From an uncultured Nitrosomonadales bacterium (GTDB lineage Bacteria > Pseudomonadota > Gammaproteobacteria > Burkholderiales > Gallionellaceae), in the NCBI GenBank assembly GCA_903885165.1, contig CAISHO010000084.1, positions 6,813 to 70,812 on the forward strand: a stretch of DNA of 64,000 nt, read 5' to 3'. A model generated the notes under the pieces. The model worked only from the letters and a program-made list of their open reading frames with translations. It was not told where the DNA came from and made no database searches. Position 1 is the stretch's first letter; every line of letters begins with the position of its first letter. Shown here in pieces: positions 9,538 through 61,436 of this stretch. Both the position numbers and the translations under genes were made by a program.

Positions 9538-10272
9538 TTAAGCTACTTGTTCTGTCGGCTCTTCAGCAACTTGCTGAACCAGCTCATTCAATGCCTGCGC
9601 GCGACCTTCCAGAATCGCATCAGCGATACCGCGAGCATACAAACGAATCGCTTGTGTAGAGTCATCGTTACCAGGAATCACGAAATCAACGCCCAATGGC
9701 GAATTATTAGTATCAACGATACCGATAACAGGGATACCCAGCTTCTTCGCTTCAACAACCGCACCCTTTTGGTAGCCGACGTCGATCACGAATAATACAT
9801 CAGGCAGACCTTGCATATCCTTGATACCGCCCAGACTGCGGTTCAACTGCTCCAGTTCGCGGTTCAATACCAGCGCTTCTTTCTTGGACAGGCCTTCTGC
9901 ACCGCCGTCAGCCATGATAGCTTCCAGTTCACGCAGACGCTTGATCGACAATTGAACCGTCTTGTAGTTTGTCAACATACCGCCCAACCAGCGGTGATTA
10001 ACGAATGGGGAATTTGCTCGAACAGCTTCTTCTTGCAAAATATCACGTGCCTGACGCTTAGTCGCAACGAACAGGACGGTACCCTTTTTCGCGGACAATT
10101 TGCGTACATAGCTTTCTGCTTCTGCAAACAGCGCTACGGACTTTTCCAGGTTGATGATGTGAATACGGTTGCGATGACCAAAGATGAACGGTGCCATCTT
10201 AGGGTTCCAGAAACGGGTTTGGTGACCAAAGTGAACACCAGCATCCAGCATTTGACGCATTGTTACAGCCAT
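9538..10272 (-). CDS. rpsB: 30S ribosomal protein S2
   Basis: [35 protein letters not shown]; ATG 10272. Confidence 0.98.
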
Positions 10273-10287
10273 GTTTATTCCTATCGT

Positions 10288-10352
10288 AAGGGTTATAACT
10301 ACCATTCGCCAGCCTGACTCTTACGAGCACCCCAACTTGCGCGAATGGGAAA
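10288..10352 (-). promoter_or_regulatory. rpsB (S2) autoregulatory leader, t44-like
   Basis: Minus strand has a ccattcgc...gcgaatgg stem, GGGGUGC and UAACCC just upstream of rpsB, the hallmarks of proteobacterial S2 leaders. Confidence 0.75.
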
Positions 10353-10586
10353 TTTACACCGGCTAATTCCGATGCAACTCGTATTGTAACATCAATCAGT
10401 CACCCCACTCAACCGGAAAAAGCATCGACTAAAATTTAGCACAGATTATCTGCGCCCTTTATAGCACAGCGCTGACAGCAAAGTTACGTGCAAAAATTCT
10501 CGTAGCGATTTCACCAAACAATTGCTGGCTATAGCCGGTGGGTTTGAGCTCTTAAAATCTGCATCGTCGAAGAAAATATGAAAATG

Positions 10587-11813
10587 TTAAATGAACCCAT
10601 ACACTTTTAAGGTCTGTTGCTTTCCCTTGGCTACCACCTGACGTGCTTCATGATCGGTGGTTATCAGCTTCAGTACACCGGTGGCGTCTTCTGATAACAA
10701 TAGCTCTCCCGGTAACGCTGCACTACAAATCCGCGCACAGGTGTTAACCGGATCTCCAGTAATTCTGATGGCCTTGGTGGTGTTTGAGCCGACTAGCCCT
10801 TCTATCACTTCACCGTAATGAACGCCTATCCCCACCGTCAAACCAGATTGTTTTAGTTGATCGATACTCATTTTCTTCAGCGCCTGAATGCGCTCGAGCA
10901 AATTGTTATCAGGTGCAAACCATGTCATCACCTCATCCCCCGTAAACTGGGGTTTTGCTCCTCCGGCATTGACGATGCATTGCTCGGCGGTTTCATAATA
11001 TTCGTTGAGCATGGCTATGATTTCCTGTAATTGATGTTTTTCGCTCCACTGAGTAAATCCACGAATGTCCATGAAAAGGATGATTTTCTGTGTACGTTGC
11101 CCTTGAATCGAGACCACCCCTTCCACACTTGACTCCGTAAAGGCTTCATCGAAAGACCAGCCGGTTAATTCATGTAAACGTTTTGCAATGTGCTGTAACA
11201 GCGCAAAAGACTGATTCCTGGATGCCTCACTCACCCCGATCAGAAAACCGAACATGAGTGAACTGGAAAGAATATAGGCATGGCCGGGCAGACTCCAATA
11301 CTCAATGAATGAGGCGTAAGTCAAAACTCTGGCAATTTCCGTCGAATACCATTCTGCAAAAAAATAGAGCGAAGGAAAGAGCGAGACACGCAAGAGGTTC
11401 ATCAGGATGGTCTGTAGATGGACAAGCGACTGCTGTCTTGAGCGCCAATAGGTGAGCAGTGCCAATAGAACAGAAAATGCCCAATAAATCAAATGGTAGG
11501 GCGAATTGATAAATTTAGCCCAGCCATCCAAAGCAACATCCACAAGACTATAGGCAACGGGTGCAATTAATAAGTACAAGGCGCTTTTCCAGGCTGAGTG
11601 ACGCCCTGAATACTCAATAACCCAAGTTTGCAAGACAGCGCTTATCAATAACAGGTAATTGGCCGGATCTGCCAGCGTTGCCCTTATTCCATCGTTTACA
11701 GCGATATAGGTAAGAAAGAAAATCTGGAATAAGCCGGAGTTTAAAAAAAACTCGCGAAGCATACGTTCTTTCGGTGTACCTTCTATACGCTGACTGATGG
11801 ATATTGTTTTCAT
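10587..11813 (-). CDS. Membrane-anchored class III nucleotide cyclase (adenylate/guanylate cyclase domain)
   Basis: Several N-terminal TM helices; LFMDIRGFT, QFTGDEVM, GIGVHYGEVIEG, GDPVNTCAR, KGKQQ. Confidence 0.88.
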   Translation of the reverse strand: MKTISISQRIEGTPKERMLREFFLNSGLFQIFFLTYIAVNDGIRATLADPANYLLLISAVLQTWVIEYSGRHSAWKSALYLLIAPVAYSLVDVALDGWAKFINSPYHLIYWAFSVLLALLTYWRSRQQSLVHLQTILMNLLRVSLFPSLYFFAEWYSTEIARVLTYASFIEYWSLPGHAYILSSSLMFGFLIGVSEASRNQSFALLQHIAKRLHELTGWSFDEAFTESSVEGVVSIQGQRTQKIILFMDIRGFTQWSEKHQLQEIIAMLNEYYETAEQCIVNAGGAKPQFTGDEVMTWFAPDNNLLERIQALKKMSIDQLKQSGLTVGIGVHYGEVIEGLVGSNTTKAIRITGDPVNTCARICSAALPGELLLSEDATGVLKLITTDHEARQVVAKGKQQTLKVYGFI

Positions 11814-12146
11814 TTTTTCTGATGATGACCGGATGAAATAATGGAGACGTTAAATTTCTTTTGTTAGTGAACGTGTGGTTTACGCGTGACGCATTAGCCA
11901 GTTTTACTACGCCCGTAGATAGTGATTCCCATTACCACGAACACAAATCCAGCAACATAAAGGCATCGCTGACATCAGCCCTCTGCTACTGGTGTTGATA
12001 GCCACTCCAAACAAGCTTTCAATTCTTCTGCGGCACCGCGCACAATAATGGCAGAAATATCCTGTTATACCACTACCTATTTCTCTGGATACCTAACGCG
12101 AAGTTCATCCAGATCAGGGTTTGTTTTTAGCCATTCCAGCGTATTT

Positions 12147-12605
12147 TTATAGTAATATTTCTTCATAAAATAAACCACCGAAGAGCGCGTTCATCTGGCT
12201 TCCTTTTTTCGCCGCGCGCTTTTTCCATTCACTCTTTACCATCAGGTACCACAGCACGCGTGTTGCGAAATACCCCATAACGGCAAGCAAGGAAGCTAAT
12301 AGCGGCAGACCAATGGCAAAAGGTTCACCCAGTGTCAGCAGCCATTCCGGCAGGAAGGTGAATGGATTGGTATAAAGCGTAGTGAACATGGCCACTGGCA
12401 GGTTAACGCGAAACAGAACGGACACCATCGCTGCGCCTATCATTTGTAACGGGCCTGGAATCAGGCTGCAAAACACACCTGCCGCAACGCCGCCTGCCAC
12501 CGAGCGGCGGTTCAGATGCCACAGGTTCGGGTGATGCAGCCATGAACCGAAGGGGCGTATCCAGCGATTTTTCCTGATGGCTTCATGGTCAAGCACTGAA
12601 TTCAT
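12147..12605 (-). pseudogene. DUF2062-family membrane protein, 5'-truncated and apparently internally deleted
   Basis: LWHLNRRSVAGGVAAG and NLPVAMFTTLYTNPFT fit DUF2062; the usual N-terminus is missing and NPFT runs directly into EWLLTLGEP. Confidence 0.6.
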
Positions 12606-12831
12606 GGAATCTCAACGTGGATTTTGGATTTCCTGTCTTGATGTATTTACGCTTGCGAAGAGAACAGACAAGAGAACCGATAATGAGCATAGCTCCCGGG
12701 ATGCCCAGAGATCGACCAACCCAGACTAAATTCAATCGATGCAGGAGGTAGTCGCCACGGAGAGCGACTGCAGCCAGAAGGCTTAGCAGGATACTAAAGG
12801 TAAGAACATACAGCCTCAAGAGTGAGGTCAT
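12589..12831 (-). pseudogene. N-terminal fragment of a membrane protein (GRSLGIPG..SLRKRK..LRFHE type), truncated
   Basis: Two TM segments, then a stop just after HEFSA, overlapping the DUF2062 fragment; family assignment from memory. Confidence 0.45.
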
Positions 12832-13041
12832 TCTTTATACCTCAGTATTCTATTCGTCAGCGGCCGTCACACCACAGAAACCAGTCGCTCAGGCTCAGCC
12901 ACTCGACAGAACATTGGCAACGTTGCCGTTCATCATCACTATTGGTTTTATGGACATTCTACACACTTCACCCACTCAATTCCGAAGATTTACATACAAA
13001 TTTTCATGGCCAATTATTTACACCATCCAGTGACGGCACGG

Positions 13042-18066: not shown

Positions 18067-18143
<77 letters not shown>

Positions 18144-33187: not shown

Positions 33188-34882
33188 ATGAAGCTTAATA
33201 CCCGATTCTTTTTGTTGATGACCTGCATTTTTTTGTTGTTTGCATTGCTGTCCTGGCTGTCCTTCAGTCAAATGGTAGATGAAATCAACCAGCAATGGGC
33301 AAGCCAATTCGCCGAACGCCAAGTATTATTCGACAAGCACCGAACCCTCTCCCCGCTGATCCGCGAAATCCGTATGGCACGCCAAATGGCGGCAGAACCG
33401 GCGCTGATTGAAATGGCCTTGCATGAAGACAATCCTGAAGTGGTACGGCGCGCCACCGAGGTCATGGAAAGCTATCGCTTTAATTTCCGCGATCACAGCT
33501 ATTTTGCCGCCTTTGCCCATAGCGGCAATTACTACTTCAATGACGCAGCAGGGCAATTTTCCGGTAAACAGTTCAGATATACGCTATCCCCCACGGTCAA
33601 AAGCGATTACTGGTTCTATGCCACGCTAAAAGACGGTGCGGAGTATCAGGTCAATCTTGATCCTGACCTTCATCTGGGCGTTGTCAAGGTATGGATCAAT
33701 GTGCTTTTAAAAAAGGGCAATAATGTGCTTGGCGTCATCGGTACAGGGATGGACCTGACCGACTTTCTCAAAGAAAGCGTAGACATTGAGCAACCCGGGA
33801 TACACAACCTTTTTGTCGACAAGAGCATGGCGATTCAACTCTCCTCCGACCCGAAGCTGATCGACTATGCCAGCATTTCAAAAACGGTGGGCGAACGCAC
33901 GAAAATTGACGTGTTACTCAAAAACCCGGCCGATGTCGAACGACTGCGGCAAGCGGCTCGGCGCATAGAGAAAAATCAGGGGGAAAATGTCACCACGATG
34001 TGGGTAAATTTCATGGGCGGATCGCACCTCTTGGCCATCGCCTATCTGCCTGAAATCGGCTGGTATGATCTCACCCTGATGGACGAGAAAAGCCTGACGG
34101 TATTGAACGGTTATACCTGGCTACCGTTCGTTGTCGGCGCACTGTTTCTGCTCGCCTTGCTGGTGGTGGGCTATTTCCTGCACCGCTGGATTTTAAAACC
34201 TATCCATAAACTCCAGTCAGCCACCGAAGAGATACAGCATGGGAATTACGACATTGAACCCCCTCAAGTTGGCAACGGTGAAATCGCCGCGCTATCGAAC
34301 TCCTTCGGTAAAATGGTCCAGTTCGTCCAGCACACCAAGCAGGACCTGGAACGCAAAGTCATCGAGCGCACCGAAGATTTGCACAGACTGACGGAAATCG
34401 ACCCACTGACCGGCTTGCTTAACCGCCGCGGCATGATGGACAGATTTGACAAGGAAATCGCTCGGCAGGCGCGTCAGAATGGCAAATTGGGTCTACTGCT
34501 GCTCGACCTTGATTTATTCAAACAAGTCAACGATATACATGGCCATGCTGCCGGTGATCTGGCGCTGTGTGCCACCGCCAATGTCTTGCATTTGACCAAG
34601 CGCAGCTACGATCATGCCGGGCGCTGGGGTGGAGAGGAATTTTTGTTATTACTACCCGAATGCAGCGAAAAAGATTTGCTGGCCATCGCCGAACGCATAC
34701 GCGAAGCGGTTCAGAGCCTGTGTATCGAAACAGGGGGTCAAACGGTATCCTTTACAGTCAGCATAGGCGCGTACCATGCCAATAGTCCGCAAACGCTGGA
34801 TGCGATGCTGCATCAAGTCGACAAGGCACTGTATGAAGCGAAAGACGCAGGCCGCAATTGCGTGCGCCTGGCTGAGCATTGA
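33188..34882 (+). CDS. Diguanylate cyclase with periplasmic Cache-type sensor and HAMP domain
   Basis: Two TM helices, HAMP (LKPIHKL..EIAAL..F..M), DPLTGLLNRR, RSYD I-site, GGEEF. Confidence 0.93.
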   Translation: MKLNTRFFLLMTCIFLLFALLSWLSFSQMVDEINQQWASQFAERQVLFDKHRTLSPLIREIRMARQMAAEPALIEMALHEDNPEVVRRATEVMESYRFNFRDHSYFAAFAHSGNYYFNDAAGQFSGKQFRYTLSPTVKSDYWFYATLKDGAEYQVNLDPDLHLGVVKVWINVLLKKGNNVLGVIGTGMDLTDFLKESVDIEQPGIHNLFVDKSMAIQLSSDPKLIDYASISKTVGERTKIDVLLKNPADVERLRQAARRIEKNQGENVTTMWVNFMGGSHLLAIAYLPEIGWYDLTLMDEKSLTVLNGYTWLPFVVGALFLLALLVVGYFLHRWILKPIHKLQSATEEIQHGNYDIEPPQVGNGEIAALSNSFGKMVQFVQHTKQDLERKVIERTEDLHRLTEIDPLTGLLNRRGMMDRFDKEIARQARQNGKLGLLLLDLDLFKQVNDIHGHAAGDLALCATANVLHLTKRSYDHAGRWGGEEFLLLLPECSEKDLLAIAERIREAVQSLCIETGGQTVSFTVSIGAYHANSPQTLDAMLHQVDKALYEAKDAGRNCVRLAEH

Positions 34883-57239: not shown

Positions 57240-57905
57240 ATGCTAAGCCCGGACATCCGCGCCCGCATTTTGCTGCTCTACCCGATGCTGGGGGAGCTGC
57301 CGACGGCGGAACTGGACGGGCTGTTAGTTAGCGCCAGCCTGATGCAACTGCCGTTAGGCACCGTTGTCTTCGACGAACATCAGGCCTGTCAGGGATTTCC
57401 GCTGCTGCTGTCCGGCAGTCTGCGCATCATCAAGTCAGCGGCCAGCGGGCGGGAATTGCAACTGTACCGCGTCGTTCCCGGCGAGAGCTGCATCATGACC
57501 AGCAGTTGCCTGCTCGGCGACAGCCGCTATCAGGCACGCGGCATCGTGGAAGAAGCCGTCGAAATGGTGTTTTTACCGGCGGCGGTTTTCCACAACATGA
57601 TGGGCAAATACGACGCCTTTCGCCGCTACGTGTTTCATCTGTTCACCGACCGCATCACCGATTTGATGGAACTGGTCACGACGGTGGCATTCCAGAAACT
57701 CGACCAGCGTCTGGCCGCGCTACTGGTTGCCAAAACCAGCCCGATCCATACCACGCATCAGGCCATTGCCGATGAACTGGGCTCGGCACGCGAAATGATA
57801 AGCCGATTGCTCAAGGGGTTTTCTGAACAAGGGTGGGTCACGCTAGGCCGAGAGCAAATCGTGGTCACCAACCTTGCCGCACTCAAGAAATTCGCCGCAC
57901 TATAA
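57240..57905 (+). CDS. Crp/Fnr family transcriptional regulator
   Basis: cNMP-binding-like barrel (GRELQLYRVVPGESC), HTH THQAIADELGSAREMISRLL. Confidence 0.93.
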   Translation: MLSPDIRARILLLYPMLGELPTAELDGLLVSASLMQLPLGTVVFDEHQACQGFPLLLSGSLRIIKSAASGRELQLYRVVPGESCIMTSSCLLGDSRYQARGIVEEAVEMVFLPAAVFHNMMGKYDAFRRYVFHLFTDRITDLMELVTTVAFQKLDQRLAALLVAKTSPIHTTHQAIADELGSAREMISRLLKGFSEQGWVTLGREQIVVTNLAALKKFAAL

Positions 57906-58376: not shown

Positions 58377-60833
58377 ATGAGCAAGAAACACGCACAGCAT
58401 GATTTTGACCAACTACGCTGTGCAGCCAAGGCTAAGCTGGCCAACGAACCACAGCCCAATGTGCCGGATCTCTCATTCGAAGCGTTGCTACATGAGTTGC
58501 AAGTGAATCAGATTGAGCTTGAGGCACAGAATGAATCATTGCGCCAGGCTCACATTGAGATGGAAGAATCTCGCGACCGTTACGTGGATTTTTATGATTT
58601 TTCACCCGTCGGTTATCTCACTCTCAACCAAGATGGCATGATAGTCGAGATAAACCTCACCGGCGCCGAACTGATCAGGGAAGATCGCCAAAAAATCCTT
58701 AAGCGCCGCTTCTCCACTTACATTACCACGGAATACCAAGACAACTGGCATAGATATTTCATGTCTGCGCTTAAAAATACAAATGGGTTTCGTTGTGAGC
58801 TGGTTCTGCAACGCCGTGATGGCTCACGCATCTTCACACAATTGAATGGTTTGCGCCTGAAGAAAGATGGCAAAGATCCAGTAGTACGCATCGTGCTGAC
58901 TGATATTACTGAACGCAAGCAGGCTGAGGAGTTGCTTCACGAAAGCAATGATCGACTTGACTTTGCATTTAAGGGTTCTGGTGATGGCATGTGGGACTGG
59001 GATGTCACCACGGCCATGGTAAGGTATTCAGTGCTATGGAAATCCATGCTGGGCTATGACGATGGCGAACTTGCTAATGAATTTGAAGAATGGGAGCAGC
59101 GTGTTCATCCGGATGATTTGCCCAAGGCCTTGGCTGATATCAAATCCTATTTGCATGGTGAGACATCCGTTTATAACAATGAACATCGTCTATTGTGCAA
59201 AGACGGTAGCTATAAATGGATACTCACTCGCGGCATTGTGAGGAGTCGCGCTGCGGATGGAACGCCTCAACGCTTGATTGGCACACATACAGATATTTCT
59301 GAACAGAAAAAAATAGAGGAATCACTGCGCATCTCAGCGACAGCATTTGAGACTCAGGAAATCATCATGGTGACCGATGAGCGTGCTGTCATTGTTCGCG
59401 TTAACAGCGCATTCACGAATCTGACGGGTTATAGCGAAGAAGAGGTCATTGGTAAACTGCCATTCATTCTTCAATCAGGGCGTTATAACGCAGCCTTTTA
59501 CCAGTCTCTTTGTGAGGCAATTGGTCGTGACCATAACTGGCGGGGAGAAATATGGGGCCGGCGCAAGGACAGTACAGAATTTTTGGCGCAGCTCAGCATT
59601 TCTGCAGTAAAGGATAAGGGATGGATTACGTCGCATTATGTCGCTACTTGGCGGGACATAACCGCGCAAAATCATGCCGAGGAGCAATTGCAACTTTCGT
59701 TTCGTAAACTGGAAGAAAAGGAATTAGCTAAGACCAGATTTCTTGCCGCAGCCGGACATGACCTGCGACAACCATTGGCAGCCGCCCAAATGTTTATCTA
59801 TGCGCTCAATGCAGGCAACCCCACTACGGAACAAAAGGATCTGATCCAAAAGTTGATGTCCTCAATGTCTACTTTTAAAGATCTGCTTGATGCTTTATTG
59901 AATTTGTCAAAACTTGATTCTGGCAGGATTAAATCTAAATGCGAGCCGATTAATATACCGAATTTAATGATCTGGTTGGAAGCCCACTTTGCGCCTATCG
60001 CAAGGGAGAAAAAACTTGTAATAAACCTATATTTTTCATTGGCTGAGATAATTAATATTAGTTCTGATCACGGCTTGCTTAAATCGGTGCTGATAAATTT
60101 GGTTGCTAATGCCATCAAATTTACCACTAGTGGTGCCATTCTATTGAGCGCCAGACGTCGCGGCAAGGATGTGCTGTTTCAGGTCTGGGATACTGGGATT
60201 GGAATTGCAGAAGAAAACTTGCAACATATCTTTGAAGAGTTCTATCAGATAGATAATCCACAAAGAGATAGGGTCAGCGGTCTGGGATTGGGCTTACCCA
60301 TCGTGAAACGCACCTTGGATTTATTGGGAAGTGAAATTAGATGTCATTCAAAACTTGGTCGTGGATCAGTTTTTGAATTTCGTTTACCAATCTTGATGAC
60401 TTACGATGTAACGCTGCTGCGGAATGTGATGACGGTGCAAAACAATCAGGCTGACTATTCTTTTCTGCTAGGGAAACAGTTTGTTTTGATTGAGGATGAC
60501 ATGCTTTTAAAAGAAGCCACAACAGCATGGATAGAAGCAGTGGGAGGCCACGTGGCAGTCTTTGATAGCGCCGAAAGTGCCTTGGAGTACGCAAATATTG
60601 AAGGCGCCGATTACTACATTGTTGACCACATGCTGAAAGGGAAACTGAGTGGAATTGATTTTCTGAATATGCTTTATAAAAGAACTTGCAAGTCCATCAA
60701 TGCGGTACTGGTGACAGGTAATACATCAAATGAACTTGTTCGTGATGCAGATGGTTTTAAATGGCCGGTACTTTTTAAACCAGTTAATGCGTACAATTTG
60801 GTTTCCTGCCTTACTGAGGAAGTATCAAGGTAA
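58377..60833 (+). CDS. Multi-PAS hybrid sensor histidine kinase with C-terminal receiver domain
   Basis: Three PAS/PAC domains, AAAGHDLRQPL H-box, NLVANAIKFT, VWDTGIGI, GLGLGL; receiver IEDD...VDH...LVTG...FKP. Confidence 0.93.
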   Translation: MSKKHAQHDFDQLRCAAKAKLANEPQPNVPDLSFEALLHELQVNQIELEAQNESLRQAHIEMEESRDRYVDFYDFSPVGYLTLNQDGMIVEINLTGAELIREDRQKILKRRFSTYITTEYQDNWHRYFMSALKNTNGFRCELVLQRRDGSRIFTQLNGLRLKKDGKDPVVRIVLTDITERKQAEELLHESNDRLDFAFKGSGDGMWDWDVTTAMVRYSVLWKSMLGYDDGELANEFEEWEQRVHPDDLPKALADIKSYLHGETSVYNNEHRLLCKDGSYKWILTRGIVRSRAADGTPQRLIGTHTDISEQKKIEESLRISATAFETQEIIMVTDERAVIVRVNSAFTNLTGYSEEEVIGKLPFILQSGRYNAAFYQSLCEAIGRDHNWRGEIWGRRKDSTEFLAQLSISAVKDKGWITSHYVATWRDITAQNHAEEQLQLSFRKLEEKELAKTRFLAAAGHDLRQPLAAAQMFIYALNAGNPTTEQKDLIQKLMSSMSTFKDLLDALLNLSKLDSGRIKSKCEPINIPNLMIWLEAHFAPIAREKKLVINLYFSLAEIINISSDHGLLKSVLINLVANAIKFTTSGAILLSARRRGKDVLFQVWDTGIGIAEENLQHIFEEFYQIDNPQRDRVSGLGLGLPIVKRTLDLLGSEIRCHSKLGRGSVFEFRLPILMTYDVTLLRNVMTVQNNQADYSFLLGKQFVLIEDDMLLKEATTAWIEAVGGHVAVFDSAESALEYANIEGADYYIVDHMLKGKLSGIDFLNMLYKRTCKSINAVLVTGNTSNELVRDADGFKWPVLFKPVNAYNLVSCLTEEVSR

Positions 60834-60897
60834 ATTTTCGTCTACACTAAGTTCGCCATACTTTGTTGGATACTGTTTTGTGCATTATTTGGCGGTT

Positions 60898-61329
60898 TTA
60901 AGTACCAGCTGCAACAGTCAATGCTTGATAGCATTCCATGTATTTCATATCATCCGTCATCATGTGATTTATTAGTATATTTTTAATTTCTAATCCGGCA
61001 GTTACCCATCCTGTATCATGACCATATGGTGTGAAATTCGACATAATTTCGTTGAGTTTTTTCAGAACATTAGCGTGTGTTTTTGCATGATCTTCTAAAT
61101 TGATATATTGCCACTCCTTAAATAGTCGCTCTTCATGAGCAAAGTGCTGCACGGCATCATCAATGATGAGGTGCAATCGCTGTTTGATAACATCCGGGTT
61201 ATTGCCGCCAGTAATAGACCAGTTGAAATCATTGATTAGGAGAATAAAATTTTTATGATCCGCGTCGATTTCCGGAATTCCAACGCTCATTTCATCGTTC
61301 CACGCAATCGTACAAGTAAGCTTTTGCAT
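60898..61329 (-). CDS. Bacteriohemerythrin (single domain)
   Basis: W....SVGIPEIDADH, HFAHEE, HAKTH, HMMTDD: all di-iron ligands present. Confidence 0.92.
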   Translation of the reverse strand: MQKLTCTIAWNDEMSVGIPEIDADHKNFILLINDFNWSITGGNNPDVIKQRLHLIIDDAVQHFAHEERLFKEWQYINLEDHAKTHANVLKKLNEIMSNFTPYGHDTGWVTAGLEIKNILINHMMTDDMKYMECYQALTVAAGT

Positions 61330-61436
61330 TTTTATGCTCCAATGGAGATTGATATATTTCCGCACTGAGTCAATAAATAAAGTGCAAATATCGCTTTGGC
61401 AGTTTACGCCGAATATTAAAAATATTCACACTTTTA

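Follow-up and report, generated by a model that had tools for sequence, protein, structure and literature searches.

A predicted membrane-anchored class III cyclase with a Gln/Arg base-reading pair, a possible guanylate cyclase from a Gallionellaceae-related bacterium

Class III nucleotidyl cyclases read the base of their substrate through a pair of residues, and how these enzymes choose their nucleotide is still debated. In adenylate cyclases, a Lys at the first position donates a hydrogen bond to adenine N1 and an Asp or Thr at the second accepts one from N6. Rv0386 of Mycobacterium tuberculosis, a soluble multidomain enzyme that takes both ATP and GTP, has Gln at position 1 and, at position 2, an Asn that donates and accepts. 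To our knowledge, few enzymes have so far been linked to bacterial signalling by cyclic GMP (cGMP) or by other cyclic nucleoside monophosphates (cNMP) than cyclic AMP (cAMP). In this work, we focused on a gene (10587..11813, minus strand) encoding a putative membrane-anchored class III cyclase with the pair Gln/Arg, located in a 64,000-nucleotide stretch of contig CAISHO010000084.1 from an uncultured Gallionellaceae bacterium (this whole stretch is hereafter called the window). We know of no biochemically characterised Gln/Arg base pair.

In guanylate cyclases, specificity depends chiefly on the contact of a Glu with guanine N1/N2, and the second residue varies (PMC7384201; PMC4215837); Cys, Ser, Thr, Gly, Ala and His occur there (PMC4215837) and may act mainly by shape (PMC7384201; PMC4215837; PMC6005667). 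For PucC, cGMP was measured as product, and Glu118/Lys195 were modelled where an engineered adenylate cyclase has K497/D566 (bioRxiv 10.64898/2026.08.12.744502). The Pycsar cyclases (PycC) choose pyrimidines by narrowing the pocket with bulky or charged residues, for example F100/R142/Q144 in EaPycC and Y50/D94/R97 in BcPycC (PMC11224242).

The cyclase, its catalytic site and its membrane domain

The open reading frame (ORF) is complete, with an ATG start and 408 encoded residues followed by a stop codon. PF00211 matched residues 244-399 at 61.7 bits (cut-off 21.9), and the class III cyclase homology domain was delimited to residues 239-408 (10590..11099, on the minus strand like all features of the gene given below) from Pfam, Foldseek and a comparison of the family profile with the PDB. 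This profile, built from 81 family members, had its best PDB matches at 110-113 bits. The AlphaFold2 model, computed with the family alignment as input, reached a mean predicted local distance difference test score (pLDDT) of 86.8 and about 90 over the catalytic domain, which in Foldseek matched CyaB (3r5g), CyaC (1wc3), Cya2 (2w01) and photoactivated adenylate cyclases at E ~1e-12, with TM-scores of 0.75-0.78 on the target.

The eight catalytic positions of class III cyclases (PMC6005667 Table 1) are occupied by D249, Q289, D293, R251, R350, N357, R361 and K396. On the alignments, metal Asp 1, D249 (11067..11069), lies in FMDIRGFT and is equivalent to D448 of Cya2, and the phosphate-binding R251 (11061-11063) is equivalent to R450 (PMC6005667 Table 1). 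Metal Asp 2, D293 (10935..10937), was located in FTGDEVM from alignments and family conservation; the transition-state Asn and Arg belong to N357-T-C-A-R361 (10731..10745); the phosphate-binding K396 (10626..10628), within a KGK motif and nearly invariant in the family, stands 39 residues past N357, as K608 does past N569 in Cya2. Profile score, both metal Asp, the Asn/Arg and the phosphate-binding Arg/Lys residues, together with the predicted fold, place the protein in class III (PF00211).

Base position 1 is Q289 (CAG, 10947..10949), four residues before D293, and base position 2 is R350 (AGA, 10764..10766), seven residues before N357, as in the canonical spacing (PMC6005667 Table 1). An ungapped phmmer alignment to OaPAC put Q289 on the Lys of KFIGD and R350 on the Thr of DYTILGDAVN, and the alignment based on the 81-member profile had the same register for CyaB (K/T), OaPAC (K/T) and Cya2 (E488/G562). 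The initial annotation had described intact metal Asp residues (FMD, TGD) and an intact N-x3-R motif (NTCAR) with Gln and Arg at the specificity positions: all of this was borne out by the alignments, which left Q289/R350, and not Lys/Thr, at the specificity sites, and R251 and K396 were found intact as well. All six non-base catalytic residues being intact, only the two base readers are unusual. The protein thus looks catalytically competent from its conserved residues and predicted fold, in agreement with the active cyclase proposed initially.

The pair fits neither canonical type. Position 1 is Gln289 and not the Lys of adenylate cyclases, and position 2 is Arg350 and not Asp/Thr; as a guanylate cyclase, the protein would depart from the canon by Gln in place of Glu at position 1 and by Arg at position 2. 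Its closest relatives in sequence and in structure belong to class IIIb and have an equal arm length before position 2, but the Thr/Ser that defines class IIIb is absent there, Arg350 standing instead, while the sister protein P0012 has Thr. E294, right after D293, is nearly invariant family-wide and is a small residue in other class III cyclases; T352, on the same strand face as R350, co-varies with it.

Upstream of the catalytic domain, the N-terminal membrane domain (residues 1-197, 11223..11813) comprises six predicted transmembrane (TM) helices at about 20-41, 50-69, 74-96, 105-126, 128-157 and 176-197 (AlphaFold2 and hydropathy). TM6 is prolonged in the cytoplasm to about residue 220 (AlphaFold2 helix 176-220) and is followed by a short helix (223-230), this continuation and linker (residues 198-238, 11100..11222) carrying the invariant L213 and W219 and leading to the catalytic domain from residue 239. 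An N-in/C-in topology is predicted from the basic residues that occur at the N-terminus and in the loops 70-76 and 123-127. In the family alignment, F29, Q62, Y88, H107 and G193 of the membrane domain are invariant and E21, N25, S26, Y53, Y150 and G189 nearly so, and TM6 carries G189xxxG193; a polar pocket within the bilayer and GxxxG packing of TM6 may be envisaged from this pattern.

Modelled alone, the membrane domain had a pLDDT of 85.7. Residues 1-243 had no match in Pfam or NCBIfam, and a Foldseek search of the membrane domain against the PDB gave no fold match (best E = 1.3); the membrane domain of Rv1625c (7yzk) yielded E = 5 and a TM-score on the query (TMq) of 0.25, i.e. no related fold. 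The earlier suggestion of an unrecognised multi-TM sensor is supported by these results. A profile search with all columns of alignment A2, effectively full-length, recovered only cyclase-linked members and one stand-alone copy. A 264-residue Nitrospirota protein on a 66-kb contig (P0188) is a stand-alone family membrane domain without cyclase domain. With its invariant polar residues in the bilayer, this domain would represent a novel type of membrane sensor specific to cyclases.

Diversity of the base pair and selection on Gln/Arg

The cyclase is a member of a previously undescribed family of ~410-residue proteins. A word-indexed search returned about 90 full-length relatives of 395-452 residues, and profile searching across 1.84 billion cluster representatives extended the set. 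The D/D/N/R residues are intact in 181 of the 184 full-length family members, among which 27 different base pairs occur. K/D is found in 55 of these 184 sequences, S/T in 23, T/T in 15, K/T and E/T in 11 each, Q/R in 10, H/N and K/E in nine each, Q/G in eight, E/S and H/D in five each, H/C in four, and N/D and A/T in three each; singleton pairs make up the other 13. A later profile search added 30 K/D members and two Q/N members (P0285 and P0287). As K/D is the commonest pair, the adenylate-cyclase pair is the default of the family, and K/D and K/T are presumably the ancestral adenylate-cyclase states. The E/S, E/T and E/A clades bear the known guanylate-cyclase signature.

A neighbour-joining tree, built without support values so that its branching order is provisional, placed R/M (L006) and then K/T (P0012) beside the Q/R clade, with H/C nested inside Q/R. 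The codons at position 1 are AAG (K), CAG (Q), CAT (H) and AGG (R), and those at position 2 are ACG (T), AGG/CGC (R), TGC (C) and ATG (M), each switch corresponding to a single nucleotide at either position. Among sites fixed in Q/R but uncommon outside the clade, four (289, 350, 352 and 226) differ from at least one immediate sister; site 352 is Thr in Q/R and H/C, Asn in K/T and R/M, and hydrophobic elsewhere.

Lys at position 1 is paired with D, T or E, and Gln with R, G, S or N but never with D or E in our sample; like the Glu type, Gln mostly goes with small neutral partners. Where position 2 is Arg, position 1 is always Q (12 sequences) or E (three sequences) and never K. The three E/R sequences (P0209, P0213 and P0247) constitute a separate lineage, in which related catalytic domains are linked to REC/GAF modules; these cyclase domains are of the GDEIM type. 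One of them, P0213 (L114:6001-7506), has a HisKA-REC-cyclase architecture and is clustered with a PAS hybrid kinase, a receiver and two proteins with a cyclic-nucleotide-binding (CNB) domain. The CNB neighbours were considered as a guide to the E/R product but were uninformative, both lacking the canonical phosphate-binding Arg. Another homologue, from Nomurabacteria (Patescibacteria; L007:5423-6642), is split over two frames near residue 61-70, as a frameshifted pseudogene or through an assembly error.

Within its own clade, the Q/R pair shows no exception among the 12 sequences recovered (59-100 % identity). In the five members with available DNA, Gln is encoded by CAG and CAA and Arg by AGA, AGG, CGC and CGG; these four Arg codons across the clade imply that Arg was held through repeated synonymous change. 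Relative to the 91 %-identical orthologue P0001 (locus L001), the ratio of nonsynonymous to synonymous substitution rates (dN/dS) was 0.14 for the whole protein, 0.18 over the membrane domain and 0.11 over the catalytic domain, and a protein identical to the window cyclase is present in 288 metagenome blocks. Judging from these sequence comparisons, the gene is real, intact and under selection, with a membrane-anchored class III cyclase as its predicted product, and the Q/R pair is selected and not accidental.

Nucleotide specificity

The whole reading that best explains these data, to which we give a probability of roughly 0.42, is that of a membrane-anchored homodimeric class III cyclase with a retooled base pocket that converts GTP into cGMP. 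The six-helix membrane domain would sense an unspecified signal and relay it, via the TM6 extension and the short linker, to the cytoplasmic class IIIb-like catalytic domain. Two-metal catalysis would proceed through D249 and D293, R251, R361 and K396 holding the triphosphate and N357 the ribose. The canonical Lys/Thr of the base pocket would have given way to Gln289/Arg350: Arg350 would donate to guanine O6/N7, and Gln289, isosteric with the Glu of guanylate cyclases, would accept from guanine N1-H and N2-H. Side activities beside cGMP formation are possible.

Residue chemistry underlies this proposal. Arg is a hydrogen-bond donor only, and Gln is the isosteric amide of Glu. Because it only donates, Arg cannot play the role of Asp/Thr at adenine N6; since it can donate to guanine O6/N7 and Gln is isosteric with Glu, GTP would be the most likely substrate. 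Covariation also leads to a guanine-type reading, through the partner preferences of Gln, the restriction of Arg to Gln or Glu partners, and the position of H/C, which resembles the E/C pair of guanylate cyclases, inside the Q/R clade. A cationic residue at position 2 also has a precedent, in the Glu118/Lys195 modelled for the cGMP-forming PucC (bioRxiv 10.64898/2026.08.12.744502), and within the immediate subclade the differences between sisters are nearly confined to 289, 350 and the adjoining 352. Taken on its own, the assignment of GTP as substrate and 3',5'-cGMP as product from residue chemistry and covariation is tentative, with somewhat less than an even chance of being right.

Several points weigh against cGMP formation. 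The covariation of Arg with Gln/Glu comes from only two independent lineages. Rv0386 (Q/N) was reportedly found by Castro et al. in 2005 to make mainly cAMP, with cGMP as a side activity. In some class III enzymes, specificity is not decided by the two base positions. The long Arg together with the family-specific E294 could narrow the pocket. Within the window, we found no cGMP receptor, and the PROSITE CNB patterns matched nothing there. Finally, the base contacts of PucC belong to an AlphaFold 3 model in a preprint (bioRxiv 10.64898/2026.08.12.744502).

The enzyme might still be an adenylate cyclase, in which Q/R would relax or tune the use of ATP and the diversity of pairs would reflect loose constraint and not new products. 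This is plausible, if less likely, and much in the family speaks for it: the default pair is K/D or K/T, the closest structures are class IIIb adenylate cyclases, and Q/N members, with the pair of Rv0386, are present. Precedents exist in Rv0386 (Q/N) and Rv1900c (N/D). It is also in line with the finding that class III specificity is set partly during catalysis and not by contacts alone (PMC7384201). Loose constraint is nevertheless hard to reconcile with the strict conservation of each pair in its own clade, Arg being retained via four codons, and an adenylate pocket with an Arg that cannot accept the hydrogen bond from adenine N6 and is never paired with Lys at position 1. A weak or inactive pseudo-cyclase, acting as a membrane receptor or scaffold, would account for the odd pair in another way, non-canonical base residues often reducing activity when engineered (PMC4215837); with the six non-base catalytic residues kept, a dN/dS of 0.11 over the catalytic domain and D/D/N/R retained in 181/184 members, we regard it as very improbable.

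The initial annotation had also raised pyrimidine specificity and phage defence. Here R350, E294 and F247 would fill the purine pocket of a cCMP/cUMP cyclase with a role in phage defence or another accessory function, and EaPycC does employ an Arg/Gln set (PMC11224242). The gene is mobile, being found in three contexts, in one of which (L111) it lies beside an AbiEii toxin-antitoxin module, and PADLOC PycC models match it. The best of these models, however, reached 53.9 bits over the catalytic core only, no better than the generic PF00211 score; the PycC determinants lie at D1-2, D2-4, D2-2 and D2+1 and not at position 2 (PMC11224242); and F247 and E294 occur family-wide, K/D members included. 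Most family members, moreover, are found among ordinary signalling and housekeeping genes. We surveyed nine contexts, i.e. the window and eight other family loci on Gallionellaceae-type, Patescibacteria, cyanobacterial and unassigned contigs, and within ~10 kb of the cyclase found no effector in which a cNMP-binding domain is joined to TM or TIR (CNB-TM or CNB-TIR). As no effector gene is adjacent, the locus is not a Pycsar operon, and the defence suggestion was not upheld. A pyrimidine product is accordingly given little chance here, the evidence from sequence favouring GTP over pyrimidines. A broader proposal would make the ~410-residue family a natural specificity radiation (K/D, E/S, Q/R, H/C, S/T, H/N and others) whose members produce different cNMP second messengers, the Q/R product being a cyclic pyrimidine outside Pycsar-type operons; this, too, seems improbable to us.

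Should the guanylate reading be correct, i.e. should Q/R make cGMP, Gln/Glu plus Arg would become a new signature for annotating bacterial guanylate cyclases, in a family whose proteins are at present all labelled 'adenylate/guanylate cyclase domain-containing protein'. The most informative feature of the family is the combination of constant catalytic residues with a radiating base pair reached by single-nucleotide steps, which makes the specificity question directly testable: the K/T, Q/R, H/C and R/M sisters (55-68 % identity) offer a near-ideal natural test set, with an otherwise constant pocket and differences of one nucleotide per base codon.

Genomic setting and comparison with known systems

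The host is a Gallionellaceae-related betaproteobacterium of the iron-oxidiser type, its Tsf and RpsB being 75-88 % identical to those of Gallionellaceae metagenome-assembled genomes (MAGs). The cyclase lies directly upstream of rpsB-tsf-pyrH-frr-uppS-cdsA-dxr-rseP-bamA and is flanked on its other side by DUF2062, an 80-residue membrane ORF and an RND pump. A terminator-like hairpin (10438..10456, minus strand) was picked out by consensus scan only between the cyclase and an rpsB promoter-like site (10383-10412). In thirteen related Gallionellaceae loci, rpsB-tsf is present and the cyclase, DUF2062 and RND genes are all missing within ~5 kb, and the GC content of the cyclase is 45 % vs ~52 % for the window; the gene is, by these comparisons, a single-gene insertion at a synteny break beside rpsB. 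The earlier placement in 'accessory DNA' holds in part: the synteny break, the low GC content and the copies in two other contexts agree with it, but the neighbours (rpsB-tsf-pyrH-frr-uppS) are core genes.

Two related copies occupy other sites. The 91 % orthologue (L001) is located between a P-type ATPase and hemYXDC-ppc, in the gene order DUF2062, 338-residue ORF, ATPase, cyclase. In the window, decayed remnants of the P-type ATPase (11916-11980) and of the 338-residue ORF (11991-12146), both on the minus strand, were detected by blastn at 81-91 % identity to L001; as this ORF and the P2-type cation ATPase are both intact in L001, ~3.4 kb must have been deleted in the window lineage. For the 84 % copy (L111) the setting is a third one, with bamC and an MBL hydrolase on one side and the AbiEii module on the other. 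At L111:2457-4733, this Q/R cyclase is directly upstream of a 98-residue ORF and the AbiEii nucleotidyltransferase toxin, with a REC-HD-GYP-type protein downstream. The three contexts have in common only the cyclase gene and ~55 bp upstream, the sole conserved flank, which in the window corresponds to a stretch of ~55-60 bp (11814..11872, minus strand). This segment is presumably the promoter or 5' leader of the cyclase; a promoter scan of the conserved 60 bp gave no sigma-70 consensus match, and an Rfam scan of 10250-12900 gave only one sub-threshold chance match.

Across the family loci examined, cyclase neighbourhoods are not conserved. DUF2062 was rejected as a conserved partner: only in the window and L001 does it neighbour the cyclase, and the other contexts lack it; the MBL hydrolase of L111 was likewise discarded as a phosphodiesterase partner, its Anti-Pycsar Apyc1 score of 25.6 bits (cut-off 50) marking a generic MBL hydrolase. 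The DUF2062 gene of the window (12147-12605, minus strand) has an in-frame deletion of 117 bp (39 codons) with an 8-bp overlap at the flanks, and encodes 152 residues vs 191 in contigs L021-L023, to which it is otherwise 99-100 % identical.

The nearest other relatives, at 55-67 % identity, come from Patescibacteria MAGs and carry the pairs H/C, K/T and R/M, which suggests transfer between Patescibacteria and Gallionellaceae-type bacteria in freshwater, with MAG binning errors as a possible confounder. A 2.1-kb contig (L003, CAIZDF010000690.1) with a cyclase 100 % identical to that of the window is binned as 'uncultured Tolumonas sp.'; the core genes of the window being Gallionellaceae-like, that contig is probably mis-binned.

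Elsewhere in the window, a second nucleotide-signalling gene (33188-34882, plus strand) encodes a HAMP-GGDEF diguanylate cyclase. A CRP/FNR-family regulator (57240-57905, plus strand; cNMP_binding at 39.6 bits, plus HTH_Crp_2) is without the GE...R[ST]A phosphate motif and is probably not a cyclic-nucleotide receptor. The region 58377-61365 has a low GC content (41-47 %) and a reversed GC skew; it holds a triple-PAS hybrid histidine kinase with receiver (818 residues) and, on the opposite strand, a hemerythrin-domain protein. The sole tRNA gene of the window is a tRNA-Pro (GGG) at 18067-18143 (minus strand).

Among known systems, Pycsar PycC shares with the window protein the class III fold and the two-Asp chemistry, PADLOC PycC models matching weakly to moderately, but PycC genes belong to two-gene operons with effectors. 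PucC resembles it in the proposed use of an acceptor at position 1 and a cationic donor at position 2 to read guanine; it is, however, a soluble, Pycsar-related enzyme encoded beside a CNB-TIR/CNB-TM effector, whereas the window gene lacks a partner of this kind and its product differs at the N-terminus. In Rv0386, position 2 is Asn, unlike the donor-only Arg of the window protein. Rv1625c and the mammalian-type cyclases with six TM helices have the same general plan, i.e. six TM helices, a helical linker, a catalytic domain and a dimer (the latter expected for the window protein), but their membrane domains are not detectably related to it and their catalytic domains are class IIIa, with K/D.

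The closest likeness is to bacterial class III enzymes of the IIIb type and to Cya2. CyaB of Pseudomonas aeruginosa (3R5G) is the top match both by profile (112.7 bits) and by Foldseek, with an equal arm length before position 2. The IIIb K/T pair of CyaB, CyaC, bPAC and OaPAC is found in the sister P0012; these enzymes have Lys/Thr, a cAMP product and MASE2, BLUF or other sensors, unlike the window protein, which is without the IIIb-defining Thr. Synechocystis Cya2 (2W01; 109.7 bits, TM-score 0.75-0.77) is, as presumed for the window protein, a homodimeric membrane-linked bacterial class III cyclase; its eight catalytic residues follow the same layout, and its pair, E488/G562, likewise contains neither Lys nor Asp and stands at equal spacing (PMC6005667). 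The two differ in that Cya2 combines Glu/Gly with a periplasmic CHASE2 sensor, whereas the window protein combines Gln/Arg with an all-membrane six-helix domain.

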